From: Escherichia phage vB_EcoM_HZ_ZJUN4
Sequence record: PP216085
Length of the DNA: 64,000 nt
Strand: one strand, 5' to 3'
Shown here: positions 6,775 to 43,915 of the stretch, piece by piece
Numbering within the stretch: position 1 is the stretch's first letter
Layout: every line of letters starts with the position of its first letter
Program-made: the position numbers and the translations under genes
The notes under the pieces: model-generated
Seen by the model: the letters and a program-made list of their open reading frames with translations, nothing else
Told to the model about the DNA's origin: nothing
Database searches by the model: none

Positions 6775-8588
6775 CAATTGAAAAAGAAATTGAAGGATTA
6801 ATTCATAAAACTAATAAAGACCTTTTGAACGAGAATGCTAATAAAGATTCTCGTGTTTTTCCAACTCAACGGGACCTTATGGCTGGTATTGTGTCTAAAC
6901 ACATTGCCAAAAATATGGTCCCGTCTTTTATTATGAAAGCGCATGAAAGCGGAATTATTCATTTCCATGATATTGATTATTCCCCTGCTCTTCCATTTAC
7001 TAATTGCTGTTTAGTAGATTTAAAAGGAATGCTTGAGAACGGGTTTAAGCTTGGTAATGCACAGATTGAAACCCCTAAATCAATCGGCGTTGCTACTGCA
7101 ATTATGGCACAAATTACTGCACAGGTTGCTTCCCATCAATACGGTGGAACGACTTTTGCGAATGTAGATAAAGTCCTTTCTCCTTATGTTAAACGCACCT
7201 ATGCAAAACATATTGAAGACGCGGAAAAATGGCAAATCACTGATGCGTTGAATTATGCCCAATCTAAAACAGAAAAAGATGTATACGATGCGTTCCAAGC
7301 TTATGAATATGAAGTAAATACTCTCTTTAGTTCAAACGGACAAACGCCTTTTGTAACAATTACATTTGGTACGGGAACTGACTGGACTGAACGAATGATT
7401 CAGAAAGCAATTCTGAAAAATCGTATTAAAGGTCTTGGTCGTGACGGGATAACTCCTATTTTCCCTAAACTTGTTATGTTCGTTGAAGAAGGTGTTAATC
7501 TTTATAAAGACGATCCGAACTATGATATTAAGCAGCTTGCTCTAGAGTGTGCAAGCAAAAGAATGTATCCTGATATTATTTCAGCTAAGAACAATAAAGC
7601 TATCACCGGTTCATCTATTCCTGTTTCTCCAATGGGTTGCCGTAGTTTCTTGAGCGTATGGAAAGATTCGACTGGTAATGAAATTCTTGATGGACGTAAT
7701 AATCTTGGTGTTGTAACACTGAATCTTCCTCGCATTGCACTAGATTCTTATATTGGAACACAGTTCAATGAACAGAAATTTGCCGAATTGTTCAATGAGA
7801 GAATGGATTTATGTTTTGAAGCATTGATGTGTAGAATTAGTTCCTTAAAAGGAGTTAAAGCTACTGTTGCTCCTATTCTTTACCAAGAAGGTGCATTCGG
7901 GGTTCGTCTTAAACCTGATGACGATATAATTGAGTTATTTAAAAACGGTAGAAGTTCAGTGTCCCTAGGATACATTGGTATTCACGAATTGAATATTCTT
8001 GTCGGTCGTGATATTGGACAAGAAATTTTAACTAAAATGAATACTCATCTTAAGCAGTGGACTGAAAGAACCGGTTTTGCTTTTAGCTTGTATTCTACTC
8101 CTGCTGAAAACCTGTGCTATCGCTTCTGTAAACTTGATACTGAGAAATATGGAAGTGTAAAAGATGTTACTGATAAAGGATGGTACACTAATAGTTTCCA
8201 TGTTTCAGTAGAAGAAAATATCACTCCGTTTGAAAAGATTTCTCGTGAAGCACCATATCATTTCATTGCGACAGGTGGTCACATTTCTTATGTTGAACTT
8301 CCTGATATGAAAAATAACTTAAAAGGTCTTGAGGCTGTATGGGATTATGCTGCGCAACATTTAGATTATTTTGGCGTTAACATGCCAGTAGATAAATGTT
8401 TTACGTGTGGAAGTACCCATGAAATGACTCCTACTGAAAACGGATTTGTTTGTTCTATTTGTGGAGAAACTGATCCTAAAAAGATGAACACAATAAGAAG
8501 AACTTGTGGTTATTTGGGAAATCCGAATGAACGCGGATTTAATCTTGGCAAAAATAAAGAAATCATGCATAGGGTTAAACACCAATGA
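6771..8588 (+). CDS. nrdD: anaerobic ribonucleoside-triphosphate reductase NrdD (uninterrupted, no intron)
   Basis: 605 aa; C-terminal Cys cluster CFTCGS...CSICGE and glycyl-radical region RRTCGYLGNPNERGFNLGK; matches recalled T4 NrdD. Confidence 0.95.
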   Translation: MTIEKEIEGLIHKTNKDLLNENANKDSRVFPTQRDLMAGIVSKHIAKNMVPSFIMKAHESGIIHFHDIDYSPALPFTNCCLVDLKGMLENGFKLGNAQIETPKSIGVATAIMAQITAQVASHQYGGTTFANVDKVLSPYVKRTYAKHIEDAEKWQITDALNYAQSKTEKDVYDAFQAYEYEVNTLFSSNGQTPFVTITFGTGTDWTERMIQKAILKNRIKGLGRDGITPIFPKLVMFVEEGVNLYKDDPNYDIKQLALECASKRMYPDIISAKNNKAITGSSIPVSPMGCRSFLSVWKDSTGNEILDGRNNLGVVTLNLPRIALDSYIGTQFNEQKFAELFNERMDLCFEALMCRISSLKGVKATVAPILYQEGAFGVRLKPDDDIIELFKNGRSSVSLGYIGIHELNILVGRDIGQEILTKMNTHLKQWTERTGFAFSLYSTPAENLCYRFCKLDTEKYGSVKDVTDKGWYTNSFHVSVEENITPFEKISREAPYHFIATGGHISYVELPDMKNNLKGLEAVWDYAAQHLDYFGVNMPVDKCFTCGSTHEMTPTENGFVCSICGETDPKKMNTIRRTCGYLGNPNERGFNLGKNKEIMHRVKHQ

Positions 8589-9424
8589 ATTACGATAGAT
8601 TTTATCCCTGTGATTTTGTGAATGATAAATTATCTTTAATATTTGAAGAAAATAATGATTTACTATTGTCATATGTTGATTTGATAACAAAAAATTATAA
8701 TAATCCTAAAATAAAAGGAAAAACGGAAGCACATCACGTGCTTCCCAAATCTATATTTCCCGAATATAAAACAGATAAATGGAATATTGTTAATTTGTCA
8801 TATTATGACCACGCGTTAGCTCATTACTATTTAGCTAAAACAAGTAATAGTAAAATGTGTTATGCCTTTCATAGAATGATAAACTCGAATACCGATAGAT
8901 TTAATACAGATGAATTGGATGAAATTCTTAAATTGTATTCCAGTGAAAAGGAATTATTTCACCGCTCTATGTCAAAATTATCGAAAAATATATGGAAGGA
9001 TGACGATTTTAGAAAAAGACATAGAGAACTAACTAAGTTAGCAATGCAAAAACCTGAAGTTAGAAATAAAACTTTATTAAATTTGTCAAATGCAATGAAA
9101 ACTGACGAAGTTAGAAATAAAATTTCCAGGCTAACTAAGTTAGCAATGCAAAAACCTGAAGTAAAAGAAAAACATAGAAATTCATTGAGGTTGGCGTATG
9201 CAAATCCTGAGGTTATGAAAAGAAAACATCAACGTCTTCGAGAAAAATATACTCTTAATTTATTTGGCGCATATAAAGATGGTGTTCTTTTAAAAACATT
9301 TAATTATATACCAGACGCAGCAAAATATTTTAATATTTCTAGCAAAGGAAATATTTTAAAATGTTTAAATGGCGAACGTAAAAGTGTTGAAGGCTATAAT
9401 TGGAAATATATAAATGAATTATGA
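8585..9424 (+). CDS. free-standing HNH homing endonuclease (Mob-like) inserted between nrdD and nrdG
   Basis: HNH region EAHHVLPKS...NIVNLSYYDHALAH; tandem repeated modules LTKLAMQKPEV(R/K)(N/E)K; first 13 codons MNYDRFYPCDFVN nearly identical to nrdG start. Confidence 0.85.
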   Translation: MNYDRFYPCDFVNDKLSLIFEENNDLLLSYVDLITKNYNNPKIKGKTEAHHVLPKSIFPEYKTDKWNIVNLSYYDHALAHYYLAKTSNSKMCYAFHRMINSNTDRFNTDELDEILKLYSSEKELFHRSMSKLSKNIWKDDDFRKRHRELTKLAMQKPEVRNKTLLNLSNAMKTDEVRNKISRLTKLAMQKPEVKEKHRNSLRLAYANPEVMKRKHQRLREKYTLNLFGAYKDGVLLKTFNYIPDAAKYFNISSKGNILKCLNGERKSVEGYNWKYINEL

Positions 9425-11841: not shown

Positions 11842-12168
11842 ATGACTATTCAAATTAAAAACGCCATCAATTCTTACGCATATGATAAAGTAGTTTCTTT
11901 GCTAGAAAAAGGCGATATTGTAACTCCTCAAATTTTGGATAAATGGGAAAAAGAGCTTCATCAGACGATGAAACAGAATGATCAGAAAATTGGACGAAAT
12001 ACTATCCGTGAATTGTTGGTTCAATATATCTTGTCAGAATTTGATGTTAAAGCTTTTGGCGTAGAATCTAAAGCTTATCAAAAGCATGAAATTTCTGATA
12101 AAACTATTCGTCGTATGAAAAATCAACGCAAGAAAAAATTTGCTGACCTGAAAATTGCTAAGGTATGA
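11842..12168 (+). CDS. hypothetical protein
   Basis: Track ORF, 108 aa, RBS GAGGATAATG. Confidence 0.5.
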   Translation: MTIQIKNAINSYAYDKVVSLLEKGDIVTPQILDKWEKELHQTMKQNDQKIGRNTIRELLVQYILSEFDVKAFGVESKAYQKHEISDKTIRRMKNQRKKKFADLKIAKV

Positions 12169-12386
12169 ATATGAACGAAGCTCTTATTAACGATTTGCGT
12201 CTTGCCGGATATGAAGTAAATACAAACGGCATTGGTTTAACTCAAATTGAAGGAAATGGATTCATCCTTGAGTATGAATTTAGCCAATGGTGGTTATACG
12301 CTAATTACGGCGAATTGATTGAATACGTTGACCAGTTTGATTCACTAGATGCAGCTCTCGAAGCGGCTAAGTTGATGAATGTATGA
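12165..12386 (+). CDS. hypothetical protein
   Basis: Track ORF, 73 aa, ATGA overlap. Confidence 0.45.
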   Translation: MNMNEALINDLRLAGYEVNTNGIGLTQIEGNGFILEYEFSQWWLYANYGELIEYVDQFDSLDAALEAAKLMNV

Positions 12387-12652
12387 AATTTATTAATATT
12401 TCTATTACTATTGAAAATTATGGAATTTTCTATGTTGACCAATACATGAAAATTTCATTTTTCCCAAATAAGACTGGTGTTGGATATTGGGAAAGCCATG
12501 TTTCTGAATTAAATGAAAGTGAATATGCTAGCACACATGAAAAGTTTTTAGACTTTTTATATCATGCTGATTTAACTAGTCATTACATAGATATTCATGA
12601 ATTTAAAAAGATGATGGAGAAAGTGTTCCAAGCATACTGTTTACTTAGATAA
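12383..12652 (+). CDS. hypothetical protein
   Basis: Track ORF, 89 aa, ATGA overlap. Confidence 0.4.
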   Translation: MKFINISITIENYGIFYVDQYMKISFFPNKTGVGYWESHVSELNESEYASTHEKFLDFLYHADLTSHYIDIHEFKKMMEKVFQAYCLLR

Positions 12653-12730
12653 CTGATATCCTCTATGCTTTAAGATAGATCTTCAAATATTATGATATAA
12701 TAGATCTATGAATTGAGCTAAGAGGTGAAA

Positions 12731-13288
12731 ATGTCAGAAACTAAGCCTAAATATAATTACGTAAACAATAAAGAGCTTTTACAGGCTATTATTGATTGGA
12801 AAACAGAATTAGCAAATAATAAAGACCCAAATAAAGTAGTTCGTCAGAATGATACTATCGGATTAGCCATTATGCTTATCGCAGAAGGCTTATCTAAACG
12901 TTTCAACTTTTCAGGATACACCCAATCTTGGAAACAAGAAATGATTGCAGATGGTATAGAAGCTTCTATTAAGGGGCTTCATAATTTTGATGAAACGAAA
13001 TATAAAAACCCACATGCATATATAACTCAAGCTTGTTTTAATGCATTCGTCCAACGTATTAAAAAAGAACGTAAGGAAGTTGCAAAGAAATATAGTTACT
13101 TCGTTCACAATGTCTATGACAGTCGTGACGACGATATGGTTGCGTTAGTAGATGAAACTTTTATTCAAGACATCTACGATAAAATGACGCATTACGAAGA
13201 ATCAACCTATAGAACACCAGGGGCTGAAAAGAAAAGTGTTGTAGACGATTCTCCTAGTTTGGATTTTTTATATGAGGCTAACGATTAA
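12731..13288 (+). CDS. 55: late-transcription sigma factor gp55
   Basis: Track ORF 12725 (GTG) trimmed to ATG with AGAGGTGAAA RBS giving 185 aa [24 protein letters not shown]; matches recalled T4 gp55. Confidence 0.9.
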
Positions 13289-13981: not shown

Positions 13982-14224
13982 AAGATGAACACCCAGACTT
14001 CTGAAATAGATTATAACAAAATTCGTTCCTCTAAAGTAGAAATGATGAGACGCTTTAAAGAGGCTCATGATAAAGCTAAAGCAGAAGGAACTATAACATA
14101 TAAACGCATAAAATTTAGAAGCTCTAATGAGCCTCTGTATGGTGTATTATGTGGATAGGAGCTTCGGCTCCTATATTGCTTTATAAATTTTTGGTAAAAT
14201 AAACCAAAACAATGAGGATATTAA

Positions 14225-15427
14225 ATGAAAGTATGTATTTTTATGGCTCGAGGTCTTGAAGGTTGCGGTGTAACTAAATTTTCTCTTGAGCAGCGTGATT
14301 GGTTTATTAAAAATGGTCATGAAGTAACTTTGGTTTATGCTAAAGATAAATCATTTACTCGTAATTGCGCGCATGATTATAAATCATTTTCAATTCCGGT
14401 TTTATTGGCAAAAGAATACGATAAAACACTTAAGTTGGTAAATGATTGTGATATTCTAATTATCAATTCAGTTCCTGCTACTTCAGTTGAAGAAGACACG
14501 ATTAATAACTATAAAAAAATTATTGATAACATTAAACCTTCGGTTCGTGTTGTAGTTTATCAGCATGACCATTCTTCTCTTTCTTTACGCCGAAATTTGG
14601 GATTAGAAGAAACTGTTCGTCGAGCTGATGTTATTTTTAGCCATTCTGATAATGGCGATTTTAATAAAGTTTTAATGAAAGAATGGTATCCAGAAACTGT
14701 TTCACTGTTTGATGATATTGAAGAAGCACCGACTGTATATAACTTTCAGCCTCCTATGGATATTGCGAAGGTTCGATCAACTTACTGGAAAGATGTTTCT
14801 GAAATTAACATGAATATCAACCGTTGGATTGGTCGTACTACTACATGGAAAGGCTTTTATCAGATGTTTGATTTTCACGAAAAACATCTTAAACCTGCAG
14901 GACTAAGTACTATTATGGAAGGTCTGGAACGTTCTCCAGCGTTCATTCCTATTAAAGAAAAAGGAATTCCATACGAGTATTATCGTCTTCATCAAGTAGA
15001 CCAAATTAAAATTGCTCCTAATTTGCCAACGCAAATTCTCGACCGTTATGTAAATAGCGAAATGCTTGAACGTATGAGTAAATCCGGATTTGGTTATCAG
15101 CTGAGTAAATTAGATAAAAAATATCTACAACGTTCTTTAGAATACACTCATCTCGAGCTTGGTGCATGCGGAACAATTCCAGTATTTTGGAAATCTACTG
15201 GTGAAAATTTAAAATTCCGTGTTGATAATACTCCGTTAATTTCTCATGATAGCGGTATCGTTTGGTTTGATGAAAATGACATGAAATCAACATTTGAGCG
15301 TATTAAAGAACTGTCATCTGACCGAGCTCTTTATGACCGTGAACGTGAAAAAGCTTATGAATTTTTGTATCAGCATCAAGATTCAAGCTTCTGCTTTAAA
15401 GAGCAGTTTGACATTATTACAAAATAA
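14225..15427 (+). CDS. agt: DNA alpha-glucosyltransferase
   Basis: 400 aa, N-terminus M-x-CIFMARGLEGCGVTKFSLEQRDWFIKNGHEVTLVYAKDKSF matches recalled T4 Agt. Confidence 0.9.
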   Translation: MKVCIFMARGLEGCGVTKFSLEQRDWFIKNGHEVTLVYAKDKSFTRNCAHDYKSFSIPVLLAKEYDKTLKLVNDCDILIINSVPATSVEEDTINNYKKIIDNIKPSVRVVVYQHDHSSLSLRRNLGLEETVRRADVIFSHSDNGDFNKVLMKEWYPETVSLFDDIEEAPTVYNFQPPMDIAKVRSTYWKDVSEINMNINRWIGRTTTWKGFYQMFDFHEKHLKPAGLSTIMEGLERSPAFIPIKEKGIPYEYYRLHQVDQIKIAPNLPTQILDRYVNSEMLERMSKSGFGYQLSKLDKKYLQRSLEYTHLELGACGTIPVFWKSTGENLKFRVDNTPLISHDSGIVWFDENDMKSTFERIKELSSDRALYDREREKAYEFLYQHQDSSFCFKEQFDIITK

Positions 15428-25829: not shown

Positions 25830-26570
25830 ATGATTAATGACTCTATGACAGTTGAAGAAATTCGTCTTCATTTGGGAATTGCATTAAAGGAAAAAGATTT
25901 TGTAATTGACAAAACCGGGGTTAAAACTATTGAAATTATTGGTGCATCATTTGTAGCAGATGAACCTTTTATTTTTGGCGCTCTTAATGATGAATACATT
26001 CAGCGTGAACTTGAATGGTATAAGTCTCAAAGTTTGTTTGTTAAAGATATTCCAGGTGAAACACCAAAGATTTGGCAGCAGGTAGCATCTTCTAAAGGCG
26101 AAATTAACTCGAATTATGGTTGGGCTATTTGGTCAGAAGATAACTATGCTCAGTATGATATGTGTTTAGCTGAACTTGGTCAAAATCCTGATTCTCGGCG
26201 TGGTATCATGATTTATACTCGTCCATCCATGCAGTTTGACTACAATAAAGATGGTATGTCAGATTTCATGTGTACGAATACAGTACAGTACCTGATTCGT
26301 GATAAGAAAGTCAATGCAGTAGTAAGCATGAGAAGCAATGATTGCTGGGCAGGCTATCGTAATGATTATGCTTGGCAAAAATACGTACTAGATAAATTAG
26401 TATCTGACTTGAATGCAGGCGACCCATCGCGGCAATATAAAGCAGGTTCTATTATATGGAACGTTGGAAGTCTTCATGTGTACGAAAATCAGTTTTATTT
26501 AGTTGACCATTGGTGGAACACCGGTGAGACTCATATTGCTAAAAAGGATTATACTGGAAAATGGAAGTAA
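25830..26570 (+). CDS. 42: dCMP hydroxymethylase gp42
   Basis: 246 aa thymidylate-synthase-like; catalytic Cys context FMCTNTVQY. Confidence 0.92.
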   Translation: MINDSMTVEEIRLHLGIALKEKDFVIDKTGVKTIEIIGASFVADEPFIFGALNDEYIQRELEWYKSQSLFVKDIPGETPKIWQQVASSKGEINSNYGWAIWSEDNYAQYDMCLAELGQNPDSRRGIMIYTRPSMQFDYNKDGMSDFMCTNTVQYLIRDKKVNAVVSMRSNDCWAGYRNDYAWQKYVLDKLVSDLNAGDPSRQYKAGSIIWNVGSLHVYENQFYLVDHWWNTGETHIAKKDYTGKWK

Positions 26571-27202
26571 ATGTGCCACATGTTTATAAGTATAAACATC
26601 CTAAAACTAAAAAGTGGTATATAGGAAGTCATGATGGTCACAACCCGAATTATGATGGTTCGGGTGTAGTTTGGCAACATGCTAAAAAGAAATATGGAAT
26701 AAAATCCTTTAATAAAGAAATATTATATGAAGGACCAATGTTTAGACAGGTTGAAGAAATTATTTTAACTTGTTTAGATGCTGCTAATTGTCCGGATTCA
26801 TATAATTTAAAGAATGAAGCATGGGGAGGAAGTTTTCCAGGCAAATTAAATGGAATGTACGGTAAAAAACTATCTCCAGAAGAAAGATATAAGTGCGGAA
26901 ATGCCTTTCGTGGAATCAAGCGTCCTGATCATTCTAAAAGAATGAAAGGCGAAGGTAATCCAATGTATGGTAAAAATGAGCAGGCATATGGAATTATAAA
27001 TCGAGCCAAGGAAAATTCTGGTAAAACTTATGAAGAAATTTTTGGCGTAGAAAAAGCTAAAATAATTAAAGAAACGATGTCTAAAAATCGTAAAGGAAAA
27101 CCTCATAATTTGATAGAAAAAATATGTCCGCATTGCGGACTAAAAGGACGTGGGCCAAATATGACAAGATACCATTTTGACAAATGTAAGGCACTTAAAT
27201 GA
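26561..27202 (+). CDS. GIY-YIG homing endonuclease (Seg-like)
   Basis: N-terminal KWYIGSHDG...YDGSG GIY-YIG-like motif; repeated modules (GKKLSPEERYK / GIKRPDHSKRMKGEGNPMYGK); C-terminal CPHCG; overlaps gene 42 end. Confidence 0.75.
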   Translation: MEVNVPHVYKYKHPKTKKWYIGSHDGHNPNYDGSGVVWQHAKKKYGIKSFNKEILYEGPMFRQVEEIILTCLDAANCPDSYNLKNEAWGGSFPGKLNGMYGKKLSPEERYKCGNAFRGIKRPDHSKRMKGEGNPMYGKNEQAYGIINRAKENSGKTYEEIFGVEKAKIIKETMSKNRKGKPHNLIEKICPHCGLKGRGPNMTRYHFDKCKALK

Positions 27203-28041
27203 TTCAATTCGTAATTCCAAGTTATCAACGCGTAGGGGCAGTTTCTGCCCTTGATATGTTTCCGACTGATTATGAACCTCATATTGTAGTACGTGAACAC
27301 GAAGAAAAAGCTTATTATGACGCTTACGGGTCTAGAGCTAAAATTATAACTATTCCTGATGATGTTAATGGAATTGCTGGAACTCGTAAAGCAATTACTG
27401 ATATGTATGCAGGTCAACGAATCTGGATGATTGACGATGATACTACTATTCGTATGAGTTCAATGCGAAAGAAAGATGATCGTCGCTGCGTAGATAAAAT
27501 TAACCAGTTAACTCGTGAACAGTTCTATGAATTGATTCAATACGTTGAAGATGCCATGGATTGCGGGTATTATCATGGTCATGCTCGTTTACCTATTTTT
27601 AAAATTACTTCATCTTGGGGTAATTATCGTGAAAATTCATATGGATTCACGAATACTTGGTATGACCTCGGAAAACTTGCAACAGAACAAATTGGGTATG
27701 GAAAAATTGATTTATGCGAAGATATGTATGCATTTCTCAATTTAATTAATCAAGGTTATCCGCATTTGGCCTTGTTCAAATATCTAGTTGTATCTGGAAA
27801 AGCACAGGCTCCCGGTGGATGCAGCTCAATTCGTAGTAATTCAAAACATAATAGAGCGCTTGAGCAAATCAATAGAGAGTTTCCAGAGCAAGCTCGTTGG
27901 AAAACTTCTAATATTGAAAAACGAAAATCATTGGGTGAAGAAGACGAGCCATTAAAGGTTCTTCGCATGTGTGTTTCACGCAAAGAAAAGTCAGAAGCAT
28001 TTCATAAGTTTAATGCTATTCATCCAATAGCAGTTGATTAA
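27199..28041 (+). CDS. putative DNA-modifying glycosyltransferase at the beta-gt locus (possibly beta-glucosyl-HMC-alpha-glucosyltransferase type)
   Basis: 280 aa between gene 42 and uvsX; N-terminus MIQFVIPSYQRVG and acidic MIDDDTT; not the recalled T4 Bgt sequence. Confidence 0.45.
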   Translation: MIQFVIPSYQRVGAVSALDMFPTDYEPHIVVREHEEKAYYDAYGSRAKIITIPDDVNGIAGTRKAITDMYAGQRIWMIDDDTTIRMSSMRKKDDRRCVDKINQLTREQFYELIQYVEDAMDCGYYHGHARLPIFKITSSWGNYRENSYGFTNTWYDLGKLATEQIGYGKIDLCEDMYAFLNLINQGYPHLALFKYLVVSGKAQAPGGCSSIRSNSKHNRALEQINREFPEQARWKTSNIEKRKSLGEEDEPLKVLRMCVSRKEKSEAFHKFNAIHPIAVD

Positions 28042-35753: not shown

Positions 35754-36269
35754 GCTCACTTTAATGAATGTGCTCATTTGATCGAAGGTGTTGATAAAGC
35801 AAATCGTGCATATGCTGAGAATATTATGCACAATATTGACCCACTGCAGGTTATGCTTGATATGCAGAAATCTTTACAGATTCGCTTGGCTAATGATAAG
35901 CCAGAAACAAATCGTCATCCTGATTCGCTTGAAACTGCAGGAGAAGTTCTTGCTTGGTTGCGAAACCAAGACGATTATATCGCAGACGAAACTCGCGAGC
36001 TATATACTTCTCTTGGCGGTATGAGTAATGGCGAAAAAGAAGCTTCTGCTGTATGGAAACCTTGGAAGAAACGTTATTCTGAAATGCAATCCAAGAAAAT
36101 TCAAGATTTATCTCCTGAAGATCAACTTGAAATTAAATTTGAACTAATTGACCAATTTCACTTTTTCATGAATAAATTCATTGCTCTTGGAATGTCAGCT
36201 GAAGAAATCTTTAAACTTTATTATCTGAAAAATGCCGAAAACTTCGCTCGTCAAGACCGAGGCTATTAA
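35754..36269 (+). CDS. 56: dCTPase-dUTPase gp56 (MazG-like)
   Basis: Track ORF trimmed to 171 aa MAHFNECAHLIEGVDKA... Confidence 0.85.
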   Translation, partial: AHFNECAHLIEGVDKANRAYAENIMHNIDPLQVMLDMQKSLQIRLANDKPETNRHPDSLETAGEVLAWLRNQDDYIADETRELYTSLGGMSNGEKEASAVWKPWKKRYSEMQSKKIQDLSPEDQLEIKFELIDQFHFFMNKFIALGMSAEEIFKLYYLKNAENFARQDRGY

Positions 36270-36436
36270 TGGCTCGTTTAAATAAACGTCAGCTTAAGAA
36301 AGCCCATAAGAAACGTATTGACCAGCTATTTAAAGATTATAACAAAGAGCTCGTGTGTGAGCTCTTAACTAATCAACTTCGTATGGTTGAAATTATAGAA
36401 GGTCCTGACGAAATTTTGTCAGTGAAGAAGCTTTAA
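36269..36436 (+). CDS. small basic protein (55 aa)
   Basis: Not in ORF track; TAATG overlap with gene 56 stop. Confidence 0.3.
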   Translation: MARLNKRQLKKAHKKRIDQLFKDYNKELVCELLTNQLRMVEIIEGPDEILSVKKL

Positions 36437-36465
36437 AATTAATTATAGAGCATTCAAAATGAAAT

Positions 36466-36669
36466 TTGATTTTTTATGCATGGCAAAAAGCCGGGAGACC
36501 GGCTAGTCGAGCATTTGGTTCCGATGGATATAATATTAGAGCCCATTGGAAATTTAATGCTCCAGAAGATTATTCTCCGGTAATTATTAACGGCGATGTT
36601 GTTATATTAACTAAAATCGGGTATTTTAACGTTCCGCGAGAATTTATTATAAATAATCATGTAATTTAA
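36466..36669 (+). CDS. hypothetical protein
   Basis: Track ORF, 67 aa; contains soc late promoter near its 3' end. Confidence 0.3.
   Translation: MIFYAWQKAGRPASRAFGSDGYNIRAHWKFNAPEDYSPVIINGDVVILTKIGYFNVPREFIINNHVI
36648..36655 (+). promoter_or_regulatory. late promoter core TATAAATA upstream of soc
   Basis: Exact TATAAATA about 30 nt upstream of soc ATG. Confidence 0.5.
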
Positions 36670-36986: not shown

Positions 36987-37016
36987 GTTTACTTTCCAAA
37001 ACAAGTATGGTATAAT
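36987..37016 (+). promoter_or_regulatory. T4-type early promoter
   Basis: GTTTACTTT...TATGGTATAAT. Confidence 0.6.
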
Positions 37017-38421: not shown

Positions 38422-38892
38422 ATGATTGAAGTAGCAAAACATTATTCAATAGAATTTATGTCTAAAGAAGGTAAATCAGTAAATACGCTTGACAAAGATT
38501 GCTCATTAATTATTCCTTTAGCAGAAAATCCGGACCTTTTAATTAAAGATATAAAAGAAAGAAAATATCCAGAAAATGTTATTCTAATTATAAAGCATAC
38601 TGAAGATATTTTGCAGCATACTGATTCACCATTTTCTTCTTCTGAGGCTTTAACTATTAAAGGCTATAAAAGAGCTCATGAATATGGTCTTTTTGACCTG
38701 TTTGAAGACGATAAAGTTAAATTAGCGAGTCAACCTTCTAAAAGTAAAACATTCATTATTGAAGATATTAAAGATATAAATGCATTTGTTAAGATGGTCT
38801 GGGCTCATTTTGATGTTGGACTACGCTGGAGAATGTCCGAAGAAGAAAGAAAGATTATTGAAGCTAATCGTTATTTTGGTTTTTATCGCTAG
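38422..38892 (+). CDS. hypothetical protein
   Basis: Track ORF, 156 aa. Confidence 0.5.
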
Positions 38893-38900
38893 GAATTAAT

Positions 38901-39083
38901 ATGGATTTATTTGAGATGTTAGAAGATAATCATTCTACGAATATCCAGAATGATTCTAGTGATTATAAGAAAGAATACCGTATAGTATTACAGAATTATG
39001 GAATTGAAGCTCCAGATGCTCTTCTAGAAGAACTAGCTTCATACCATCTTGACCCTCCGCCCTGGGCTCCCTGGGCAAAATAA
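38901..39083 (+). CDS. hypothetical protein
   Basis: Track ORF, 60 aa, acidic. Confidence 0.4.
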   Translation: MDLFEMLEDNHSTNIQNDSSDYKKEYRIVLQNYGIEAPDALLEELASYHLDPPPWAPWAK

Positions 39084-39094
39084 TTCAAAAAGTT

Positions 39095-39124
39095 GTTTAC
39101 TTTCCTTCCTAACAATGATATGAT
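39095..39124 (+). promoter_or_regulatory. T4-type early promoter
   Basis: GTTTACTTT...GATATGATAG. Confidence 0.5.
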
Positions 39125-39150
39125 AGCTTCTGAAGTATATGGAGGCTATC

Positions 39151-39774
39151 ATGATTATTAATCTTGCAGATGTTGAACAGTTATCTATAAAAGCTGAAAG
39201 CGTTGATTTTCAATATGATATGTATAAAAAGGTCTGTGAAAAATTTACTGACTTTGAACAGTCAGTTCTTTGGCAATGTATGGAAGCCAAAAAGAATGAA
39301 GCTCTTCATCGGCAGTTGAATAAAATCGTTAAAAAGCATTTAACTAAATCACCTTATCAGCTATATCGTGGTATATCAAAATCGACAAAAGAACTCATTA
39401 AAGATTTACAAGTCGGAGAAGTGTTTTCAACGAACAGAGTAGATTCATTTACTACTAGTTTGCATACAGCGTGTTCTTTTTCTTATGCTGAATATTTCAC
39501 TGAAATAGTACTTCGCTTAAAAACTGATAAAGCTTTTAATTATTCTGACCATATCAGTGATATCATACTTTCTTCTCCTAATACTGAGTTTAAGTATACA
39601 TATGAAGATACTGATGGATTAGATTCAGAACGTACTGATAACTTAATGATGATTGTGCGTGAACAAGAATGGATGATTCCAATTGGAAAGTATAAAATAA
39701 CTTCTATTTCAAAAGAAAAATTACACGATTCATTTGGAACATTTAAAGTGTATGATATTGAGGTAGTTGAATGA
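39151..39774 (+). CDS. modB: ADP-ribosyltransferase ModB
   Basis: Track ORF trimmed to ATG after GGAGGCTATC (207 aa); R-S-E motifs YRGIS, FTTSL, EQEWMIP. Confidence 0.65.
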   Translation: MIINLADVEQLSIKAESVDFQYDMYKKVCEKFTDFEQSVLWQCMEAKKNEALHRQLNKIVKKHLTKSPYQLYRGISKSTKELIKDLQVGEVFSTNRVDSFTTSLHTACSFSYAEYFTEIVLRLKTDKAFNYSDHISDIILSSPNTEFKYTYEDTDGLDSERTDNLMMIVREQEWMIPIGKYKITSISKEKLHDSFGTFKVYDIEVVE

Positions 39775-40373
39775 AATATTCAGCAATGCAATTAAAAGAT
39801 TTTAAAATCAAATCAATGGATGCATCGGTGCGTGCTTCTATTCGTGAAGAATTACTTTCTGAAGGATTTAATTTATCCGAAATTGAACTTTTAATTCATT
39901 GTATTACTAATAAGCCAGACGACCACTCTTGGTTAAATGAAATAATCAAATCTCGTTTGGTTCCAAACGATAAACCTCTTTGGAGAGGTGTTCCAGTTGA
40001 AACTAAGCAGGTGTTAAATCAAGGAATTGATATTATTACATTTGATAAAGTAGTATCAGCTTCATATGATAAAAATATAGCTCTACATTTTGCTTCTGGA
40101 TTAGAATACAACACACAAGTTATTTTTGAATTCAAAGCTCCTATGGTATTTAATTTTCAGGAGTATGCTATAAAAGCTCTACGTTGTAAAGAATATAGTC
40201 CGAGTTTTAAGTTTCCGGATAGCCATCGTTATCGTAATATGGAATTAGTTTCAGATGAACAAGAAGTAATGATACCAGCTGGAAGTGTATTTAGAATTGC
40301 GGATAGATATGAGTATAAAAAGCATTCAACATACACTATCTATACTCTTGACTTTGAAGGATTTAATCTATAA
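39771..40373 (+). CDS. modA: ADP-ribosyltransferase ModA
   Basis: 200 aa; R-S-E motifs LWRGV, SASYD, EQEVMIP; ATGA overlap with modB. Confidence 0.7.
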   Translation: MKYSAMQLKDFKIKSMDASVRASIREELLSEGFNLSEIELLIHCITNKPDDHSWLNEIIKSRLVPNDKPLWRGVPVETKQVLNQGIDIITFDKVVSASYDKNIALHFASGLEYNTQVIFEFKAPMVFNFQEYAIKALRCKEYSPSFKFPDSHRYRNMELVSDEQEVMIPAGSVFRIADRYEYKKHSTYTIYTLDFEGFNL

Positions 40374-40428
40374 TGGAAGGACTTAGATTCATTATACCAT
40401 GAAAGTTTTAAAGCATTTTTCATAAAGT

Positions 40429-40460
40429 TGTTTACAAGCTGAAGTAAAAATGTTATAGTA
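40429..40460 (+). promoter_or_regulatory. T4-type early promoter
   Basis: GTTTACAAG...TGTTATAGT. Confidence 0.55.
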
Positions 40461-40488
40461 TAAGTAGTTAACCGTCCGTGAGAAAAAT

Positions 40489-41235
40489 ATGAAACTGTCT
40501 AAAAATCAAATTCGTAAAATTACACGTCGTCTAGAGCATACTCAGGCATCTGCTAAAAGACGTTCTAAAGATTTTAACTTAGACTTCAATTACATTAAGA
40601 ACATTTTAGATCAGAAAGTTTGCGCTTACTCGGGAGAACCTTTTGATAATCGTATTGAAGGAGAGAAATTATCGTTAGAACGTTTTGATAATAACGTTGG
40701 ATATATTAAAGGGAATGTTATTGCAGTAAAGAAAAAGTATAATACATTTCGTTCTGATTATACTTTAGAAGAGTTGATTGAAAAGCGTGATTTATTTGCT
40801 TTGCGAATTTGTCGTTCATCTGCGAAAAAAGTTCATAAACTAAATTTAGATGAAAAGAAATGGGCTAAAATCAAAAAGACTTATAATCAAATTAAAGCTA
40901 TACAGAAAAAACGTGAAAACCGAATTGAGCACATTTCTCAGCTTTCTAAATCAAAACAAACCTCTGACATTAAGCTAACGATTATAGCACTTAAAGCTCG
41001 TATTGATGGTTCTCGTATAGCAGAAGGCGCTGAAGTTGTTAAATTGAACGTTCTTCTTAAAGGCTCGGATTGGAAAACTGTGAAAAAGTTGTCAGAAGCA
41101 GAAATGCAATATGATATGTGTGATAAAATTATTCAAGGTGTAGAGCGGTATCAAAACTTGTCTTTTATTGATAAACTTAAACTGAAAAGAGGATACCCGC
41201 TAAATTGTTCAATTTTTAAACTTATCCGAGGATAA
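40489..41235 (+). CDS. hypothetical protein (Srd-like by position between modA and dda)
   Basis: 248 aa basic protein; assignment by synteny only. Confidence 0.45.
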   Translation: MKLSKNQIRKITRRLEHTQASAKRRSKDFNLDFNYIKNILDQKVCAYSGEPFDNRIEGEKLSLERFDNNVGYIKGNVIAVKKKYNTFRSDYTLEELIEKRDLFALRICRSSAKKVHKLNLDEKKWAKIKKTYNQIKAIQKKRENRIEHISQLSKSKQTSDIKLTIIALKARIDGSRIAEGAEVVKLNVLLKGSDWKTVKKLSEAEMQYDMCDKIIQGVERYQNLSFIDKLKLKRGYPLNCSIFKLIRG

Positions 41236-43870: not shown

Positions 43871-43915
43871 ATGAAAATTTATCGTGTTGAATCATCGTTT
43901 AGTGAATTAAATTAA
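43871..43915 (+). CDS. 14-codon mini-ORF (possible leader peptide)
   Basis: ATG after GAGGATAATAAA between two early promoters; MKIYRVESSFSELN. Confidence 0.2.
   Translation: MKIYRVESSFSELN

Follow-up and report, generated by a model that had tools for sequence, protein, structure and literature searches.

Locus and gene content

A 64,000-nucleotide stretch of the genome of Escherichia phage vB_EcoM_HZ_ZJUN4 (sequence record PP216085), referred to here as the window, was analysed with a focus on positions 39,151 to 40,373, where two adjacent genes, modB and modA, are encoded on the + strand. The window is a Tequatrovirus (T4-like) segment that is reverse-complemented relative to the T4 record NC_000866, and the gene order modA.3, modA.2, modB, modA, srd, dda.1, dda is that of T4. 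A preliminary description of the DNA, made from the letters and a list of open reading frames, had placed adjacent proteins of 207 and 200 aa here, and both ORFs were recovered with exactly the coordinates listed in Table 1.

Table 1. Features of the modB-modA locus in the window and corresponding sites in related loci
Feature	Position	Strand	Basis
modA.3 (mrh-like gene), neighbour	38422-38892		
modA.2, 60 aa, upstream neighbour	38901-39083	+	PHROG 1647; counterpart of T4 modA.2
Predicted T4 early-type sigma-70 promoter of modB	39095-39124	+	Consensus scan
Predicted hairpin over the modB ribosome-binding site	39119-39153	+	Single-sequence folds; RNAalifold
modB, 207 aa, predicted NAD:arginine ADP-ribosyltransferase / RNAylating enzyme	39151-39774	+	97% identical to T4 ModB
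ModB R73-G74 codons, NAD-binding Arg on strand beta1	39367-39372	+	Conservation; T4 mutants
ModB S99-F100-T101, S-x-S/T motif on strand beta2	39445-39453	+	S99 invariant; predicted strand 98-101
ModB E171-Q172-E173, ExE catalytic motif	39661-39669	+	E171 and E173 invariant
modA GAGG, 8 nt upstream of the start	39759-39762	+	Read from the sequence
ATGA overlap of modB stop and modA start	39771-39774	+	Read from the sequence; same overlap in T4
modA, 200 aa, predicted RNA polymerase alpha-subunit ADP-ribosyltransferase	39771-40373	+	98% identical to T4 ModA
ModA R72 codon	39984-39986	+	Aligns with ModB R73; predicted strand 70-73
ModA S96-A97-S98, S-x-S motif	40056-40064	+	S96 invariant; predicted strand 95-98
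ModA E163-Q164-E165, ExE motif	40257-40265	+	E163 and E165 invariant
Predicted early-type promoter of srd	40431-40459	+	Consensus scan
srd, 248 aa, postulated anti-sigma factor, downstream neighbour	40489-41235	+	PHROG 1400, E=1e-107
Sites corresponding to the modB upstream site in related loci	L006:818-865; L007:1466-1513; L008:1343-1390; L009:1325-1372; L017:1418-1465; L019:762-809; L020:785-832		

Megablast of positions 39000-40500 matched 502 phage records with identities of 90-99%. T4-like phages of Escherichia, Shigella and Yersinia make up nearly all of them, and the usual annotation in these records is modB/modA or NAD--protein ADP-ribosyltransferase. The pair is already known, and hundreds of sequenced phages carry identical or near-identical copies. 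The characterisation of ModA and ModB, two host-takeover enzymes, goes back to the 1990s. Apart from modB and modA, no third ADP-ribosyltransferase ORF (Alt) was found in the window.

In related loci the counterpart of the upstream neighbour modA.2 carries the Pfam family PF26838 (Phage_T4_Y01E). Many phage records call this 60-aa protein a 'molybdenum ABC transporter periplasmic molybdenum-binding protein', a label that looks like a name collision with the bacterial ModA. Products that derive from gene names were also seen in the RefSeq T4 record, namely 'dextranase' for dexA.2, 'iduronate sulfatase' for imm.1 and 'ribonucleotide reductase' for 49.2. On the downstream side, the N-terminal ~100-160 residues of Srd also match HNH/endonuclease VII-type PHROGs (E=1e-18 to 1e-8), and the Srd homologue of Klebsiella phage Roth20 is annotated as an HNH endonuclease.

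Several gene-sized blocks of the window differ from T4 (7306-7309, 8585-9424, 14209-14234, 26561-28041, 36232-36648 and 43903-43907). The T4 nrdD intron with I-TevII, mobB, segF and motB.1/motB.2 are absent, a beta-glucosyl-HMC-alpha-glucosyltransferase of T2/T6-like type (27199-28041) and a homing endonuclease (26561-27202) replace T4 beta-gt and segA, and the mobC position holds an HNH endonuclease (8585-9424) different from that of T4.

Assignment and start sites of modB and modA

The first protein was aligned by BLASTP to T4 ModB (UniProt P39423; T4 positions 12507-13130) without gaps, with 201 of 207 residues identical (E=1e-156), and the second to T4 ModA (T4 positions 11908-12510) with 195 of 200 residues identical (E=3e-152). 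ModB has the same length, genome position and orientation as its T4 counterpart and shares R73/G74, S99 and E171-x-E173; the six substitutions that separate the two (K54R, H55Q, E58K, I60V, T119I and I120V) are conservative, and none is catalytic. ModA likewise has the length of T4 ModA and shares the ATGA overlap, R72, S96 and E163-x-E165, with five substitutions (V5A, A76V, N143S, N145S and C185H) away from the catalytic residues, so that all 11 amino-acid differences from T4 fall outside the R, S and ExE motifs. Shigella phage sb3 encodes a ModB with 100% identity to the one found here.

Both proteins belong to PHROG 832 ('RNA polymerase ADP-ribosylase'; E=2e-41 for ModB and 2.3e-33 for ModA), and the ModB cluster P0001 carries the precomputed Pfam label PF26816 (Mod_ADP_RT). 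In common with the T4 ModB orthologue group (PF26816), the first protein aligns to T4 ModB, is encoded between modA.2 and modA, and has R73, G74 and E173. The second shares with the T4 ModA group its alignment, its position between modB and srd, and R72, E163 and E165. The preliminary description had named the genes ModB and ModA by length and order, an assignment that the identities and the T4 gene order bear out.

Over both genes, 39 codon differences from T4 are synonymous and 11 non-synonymous, a ratio that indicates purifying selection.

The start codon of modB was placed at ATG 39151, 5 nt after GGAGG (39141-45). A longer, 211-aa version starting at ATG 39139 in the mechanical ORF list was rejected, since this triplet reads ACG in T4 as well as in related metagenomic contigs, and no Shine-Dalgarno sequence accompanies it. 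The in-frame upstream ATG (39139-39141) results from a C-to-T difference from T4 (ACG to ATG), and it lies within the loop and 3' arm of the hairpin described below; several IMG/VR relatives (L011-L013) also have it.

Relatives differ in how many mod genes they have at this locus (L006-L009, L017-L027). Two adjacent paralogues were found in Tequatrovirus, Mosigvirus and several IMG/VR Tevenvirinae contigs, with the ATGA overlap only in Tequatrovirus, and a single mod gene in Moonvirus, Karamvirus, Klebsiella phage Roth20 and one IMG/VR contig (L017). Because the number varies by lineage, the modB-modA tandem looks like a lineage-specific duplication.

Catalytic residues and predicted structure

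The preliminary description had based its ADP-ribosyltransferase call on six short strings, and all of them are present: YRGIS (72-76), FTTSL (100-104) and EQEWMIP (171-177) in ModB, and LWRGV (70-74), SASYD (96-100) and EQEVMIP (163-169) in ModA. It had read them as a triad of Arg, Ser and Gln-x-Glu. The order of Arg, Ser and acidic motif holds, and the last motif needs correction, since EQE is Glu-x-Glu. The Ser of ModB also has to be moved: FTTSL is there as quoted, and the invariant residue is S99 in 'DSFTT', one residue earlier.

A profile search of 1.84 billion representative proteins yielded 146 relatives, and the family alignment comprised 51 sequences. Four residues of this alignment, G74, S99, E171 and E173 in ModB numbering, do not vary, and R73 is present in at least 90% of sequences; the ModA equivalents are G73, S96, E163, E165 and R72. 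ModB S99 aligns with S96 in the 'SASYD' of ModA. The 51-sequence profile aligns the R, S-T-S and E-x-E motifs with those of a solved arginine-specific transferase in the PDB, Vis (E=0.0018), and the S99 motif falls on the TSTS of this toxin. The Arg, Ser and acidic motifs are thus conserved in position, both across the family and with the active-site motifs of Vis.

Structures were predicted with AlphaFold2 at a pLDDT of 93.3 for ModB and 96.8 for ModA. In the ModB model the strand at residues 70-74 holds R73, the strand at 98-101 holds S99, and E171/E173 sit at the strand of 173-176. The ModA model is arranged likewise, with R72 on a strand, S96 on the next core strand and E163/E165 at the start of a later strand. 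Foldseek against the PDB at E<=1e-3 gave 96 matches for ModB and 57 for ModA, and the best 50 matches of each protein were all ADP-ribosyltransferases, with a probability of 1.00. The proteins matched include Certhrax, Plx2A, VIP2, CDTa, iota Ia, C3, Vis, HopU1 and XopAI. In BFVD the best matches were phage ModA/ModB, with TM-scores up to 0.87.

General family libraries were silent. No general Pfam ADP-ribosyltransferase model matched ModB or ModA at E<=1 in the local Pfam-A, and no family was found in NCBIfam; the sole Pfam match, BCDHK_Adom3 (E=0.048), was taken as noise. Single-sequence phmmer searches of the PDB with ModB and ModA returned nothing at E<=10, and the 51-sequence profile was needed to reach Vis. 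The tie to the wider ADP-ribosyltransferase superfamily thus rests on profile and fold comparison. The general Pfam models are too distant, and newer Pfam has a family of its own for these proteins, PF26816.

By the R / S-x-S/T / ExE order on strands and by fold similarity, both proteins are members of the R-S-E (cholera-toxin-like / C3-like) mono-ADP-ribosyltransferase superfamily, a membership to which the general Pfam models add no match. Both have the ExE variant (EQE) rather than QxE. In the R-S-E class the ExE form goes with arginine as acceptor. The class form itself has been named R-S-EXE (PMC10468400).

Upstream region of modB

A predicted early promoter of modB was found by consensus scan, with a -35 element GTTTAC (39095-39100), an extended TG (39116-17) and a -10 box TATGAT (39119-39124) at a spacing of 17 nt. 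All aligned lineages retain GTTTAC and the -10 box at a conserved spacing. The -10 box also forms the first 6 nt of the 5' arm (39119-39132) of a predicted hairpin, followed in this arm by a further 8 nt, and the 3' arm (39140-39153) takes in the Shine-Dalgarno sequence GGAGG (39141-45) and the AUG (39151-53). Both initiation elements are thus paired in one hairpin.

Judged on the window sequence by itself, the hairpin surpasses shuffled sequences only moderately (z = -1.8 to -2.2). Comparative support was obtained with RNAalifold on 12 distinct sequences of Tevenvirinae mod loci, in which 14 pairs were predicted, six of them with compensatory double changes. The share of hairpin cells that are paired is 95.8%, against 37-48% in slid registers, and the observed covariation was reached by none of 500 shuffles.

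This arrangement recurs ahead of the first mod gene of Mosigvirus, Moonvirus, Karamvirus, Klebsiella phage Roth20 and several IMG/VR Tevenvirinae contigs, and the second mod gene has no such hairpin upstream. In nine loci the first mod gene has z-scores of -2.6 to -6.2, whereas the median over 37 genes nearby is +0.27 and none of them falls below -3 (Mann-Whitney p=2.5e-6, which is not an independent-sample probability, as the loci are related). The start region of srd, which also follows a predicted early-type promoter, has no hairpin and a fold z-score of +2.1.

A screen for structure in the initiation regions of 85 window genes ranked modB 9th, with two genes of known hairpins, soc (36686) and gene 49 (6301), recovered as positive controls in 2nd and 4th place. 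Unusually stable structures were also seen at other starts (18805, 31133, 20186, 55780 and 4078), three of which are by T4 coordinates 45.2 (z -4.6), dmd (z -3.4) and gene 44 (z -3.0).

A search of Rfam gave no family in 38800-40600, and no promoter or structure is annotated at the modB locus in the GenBank T4 records. The list of hairpins that occlude ribosome-binding sites in the review of Uzan and Miller (PMC3014915) does not include modB; an earlier description in the older T4 literature is possible. As a candidate source of read-through transcription, an early-type promoter match was found at 36988, and no terminator-like site was predicted on the + strand between 36972 and 39119.

Alternative explanations

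The two ORFs are almost certainly the orthologues of T4 modB and modA, paralogues of each other and arginine-specific mono-ADP-ribosyltransferases of the R-S-ExE form, and this is the best explanation of the locus with the predicted activities and the hairpin included. It is supported directly by identity, synteny, conservation of the catalytic residues and fold. A reversed assignment, or two copies of one type, might be suspected because the proteins are of one family (PHROG 832) and of similar length, and several GenBank records label both genes 'modA' or 'RNA polymerase ADP-ribosylase'. This is hardly credible, as the first ORF is 97% identical to T4 ModB and the second 98% to T4 ModA, against only 26% between the two, and order and lengths equal those of T4. 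It is also very improbable that one or both genes are decaying and catalytically dead, kept only by linkage. Such decay would fit the little effect of T4 modA deletions on the shut-off of early transcription (PMC2988021) and the single mod gene at this locus in several related genera, but the frames are intact, the catalytic residues are complete, and the 39:11 ratio of synonymous to non-synonymous differences from T4 fits selection on the proteins; moreover, burst size drops 4- to 12-fold in T4 with inactive ModB (PMC10468400).

For the region ahead of modB, the inverted repeat at 39119-39153 may serve in another way than by pairing the ribosome-binding site: as a weak terminator or pause site for transcripts that come from upstream, as an RNase processing site (the GGAG of the Shine-Dalgarno sequence is the RegB motif), or as a by-product of near-complementarity between TATGAT and ATCATG. 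A scan does flag a terminator-like stem followed by ATTATTAATC, both arms are constrained on other grounds (by the -10 box, and by the Shine-Dalgarno sequence and AUG), and the fold of the window sequence has a z-score of only about -2. Against these readings, the six pairs that change on both sides and still pair include some outside the -10 hexamer and the Shine-Dalgarno core, the low z-scores of the first mod genes stand apart from those of their neighbours, and the known hairpins of soc and gene 49 were picked up by the same screen. The terminator reading is less likely, as coding sequence follows the stem, and in other genera this tail is not rich in U. Taken together we regard these explanations of the repeat as rather unlikely. 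It is possible that the promoter-embedded hairpin is a previously undescribed translational gate, with ModB made only from transcripts that start at its own early promoter.

Discussion

In T4, ModA and ModB are early proteins, and the two enzymes of this phage would likewise be made early in infection. T4 ModA ADP-ribosylates Arg265 on both alpha subunits of RNA polymerase and impairs UP-element and CRP contacts (PMC2988021); the E165A variant is catalytically dead in vivo (PMC11404850). The targets of T4 ModB are S1, EF-Tu and trigger factor (PMC3014915). It also uses NAD-capped RNA as a substrate, by which S1 and L2 are RNAylated, and the R73A/G74A exchange abolishes both ADP-ribosylation and RNAylation (PMC10468400). 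In a bioRxiv preprint (10.1101/2025.07.11.664405, citing Tiemann 2004), E173 is reported as essential and R73 as binding NAD. All residues mutated in T4 (ModB R73/G74 and E173, ModA E165) are present in the proteins of this phage.

Activities and targets are predicted here by orthology. NAD+ would be bound through the Arg of strand beta1 and the Ser motif of strand beta2, and the second Glu of ExE would stabilise the oxocarbenium transition state, with transfer of ADP-ribose to arginine side chains of host proteins. ModA would modify Arg265 of both alpha subunits and block UP-element and activator contacts. ModB would modify S1, EF-Tu and trigger factor, and would join whole NAD-capped RNA chains to S1 and L2. 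The host targets named in the preliminary description (RNA polymerase alpha for ModA and S1 for ModB) agree with the T4 literature.

Bacterial R-S-E toxins (Vis, Certhrax, VIP2, iota Ia, CDTa, C3, HopU1 and XopAI) share their core fold with the Mod proteins, with TM-scores of 0.4-0.56, and their Arg, S-x-S/T and ExE motifs follow one another in the same order, at only 9-18% identity. The Mod proteins are not secreted toxins, and at the N-terminus they have a four-helix region (~5-62) that is specific to the phage proteins. The third ADP-ribosyltransferase of T4, Alt, is packaged in the head and injected, is much larger and is encoded elsewhere. ModA and ModB map to ~1247-1438 of the 1480 positions of the long PHROG 832 alignment, which may also include Alt-like proteins. 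According to the literature, Alt resembles ModA in that it targets Arg265 of RNA polymerase alpha (PMC2988021).

The T4 hairpins of e, soc, 49 and I-TevI pair the Shine-Dalgarno sequence and AUG in long transcripts and have a promoter in or at the 5' arm, with the result that promoter-proximal transcripts are open (PMC3014915). The predicted modB hairpin is alike in pairing these elements, and its predicted promoter, with the -10 box as the first part of the 5' arm, may be placed to similar effect. The internal promoter of e, soc, 49 and I-TevI is late and delays expression, whereas that of modB is predicted to be of the early sigma-70 type and would restrict expression to the earliest phase. 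We infer that modB is transcribed from its own early promoter. With a start ~7 nt after the -10 box, such a transcript would lack the 5' arm, and read-through transcripts would carry it. The conserved hairpin may in this way occlude the modB ribosome-binding site only in the longer read-through transcripts, and such gating would confine the synthesis of toxic ModB to the earliest minutes of infection.

As a gene call the locus offers nothing new, and its value lies in a clean, verified annotation and in the correction of the acidic motif to ExE, the arginine-specific type. ModB is now used as a biotechnological tool for RNAylation. The arrangement of hairpin and promoter upstream of modB is the sole part that might repay work. 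If the gate is real, ModB synthesis would end once the early promoters are shut off, despite continued read-through transcription, a temporal mirror image of the classic late-gene hairpins of e, soc and 49. A functional hairpin would explain how the highly toxic ModB is confined to the first minutes of infection, and it would add an early-gene example to the translational controls by RNA structure in T4.
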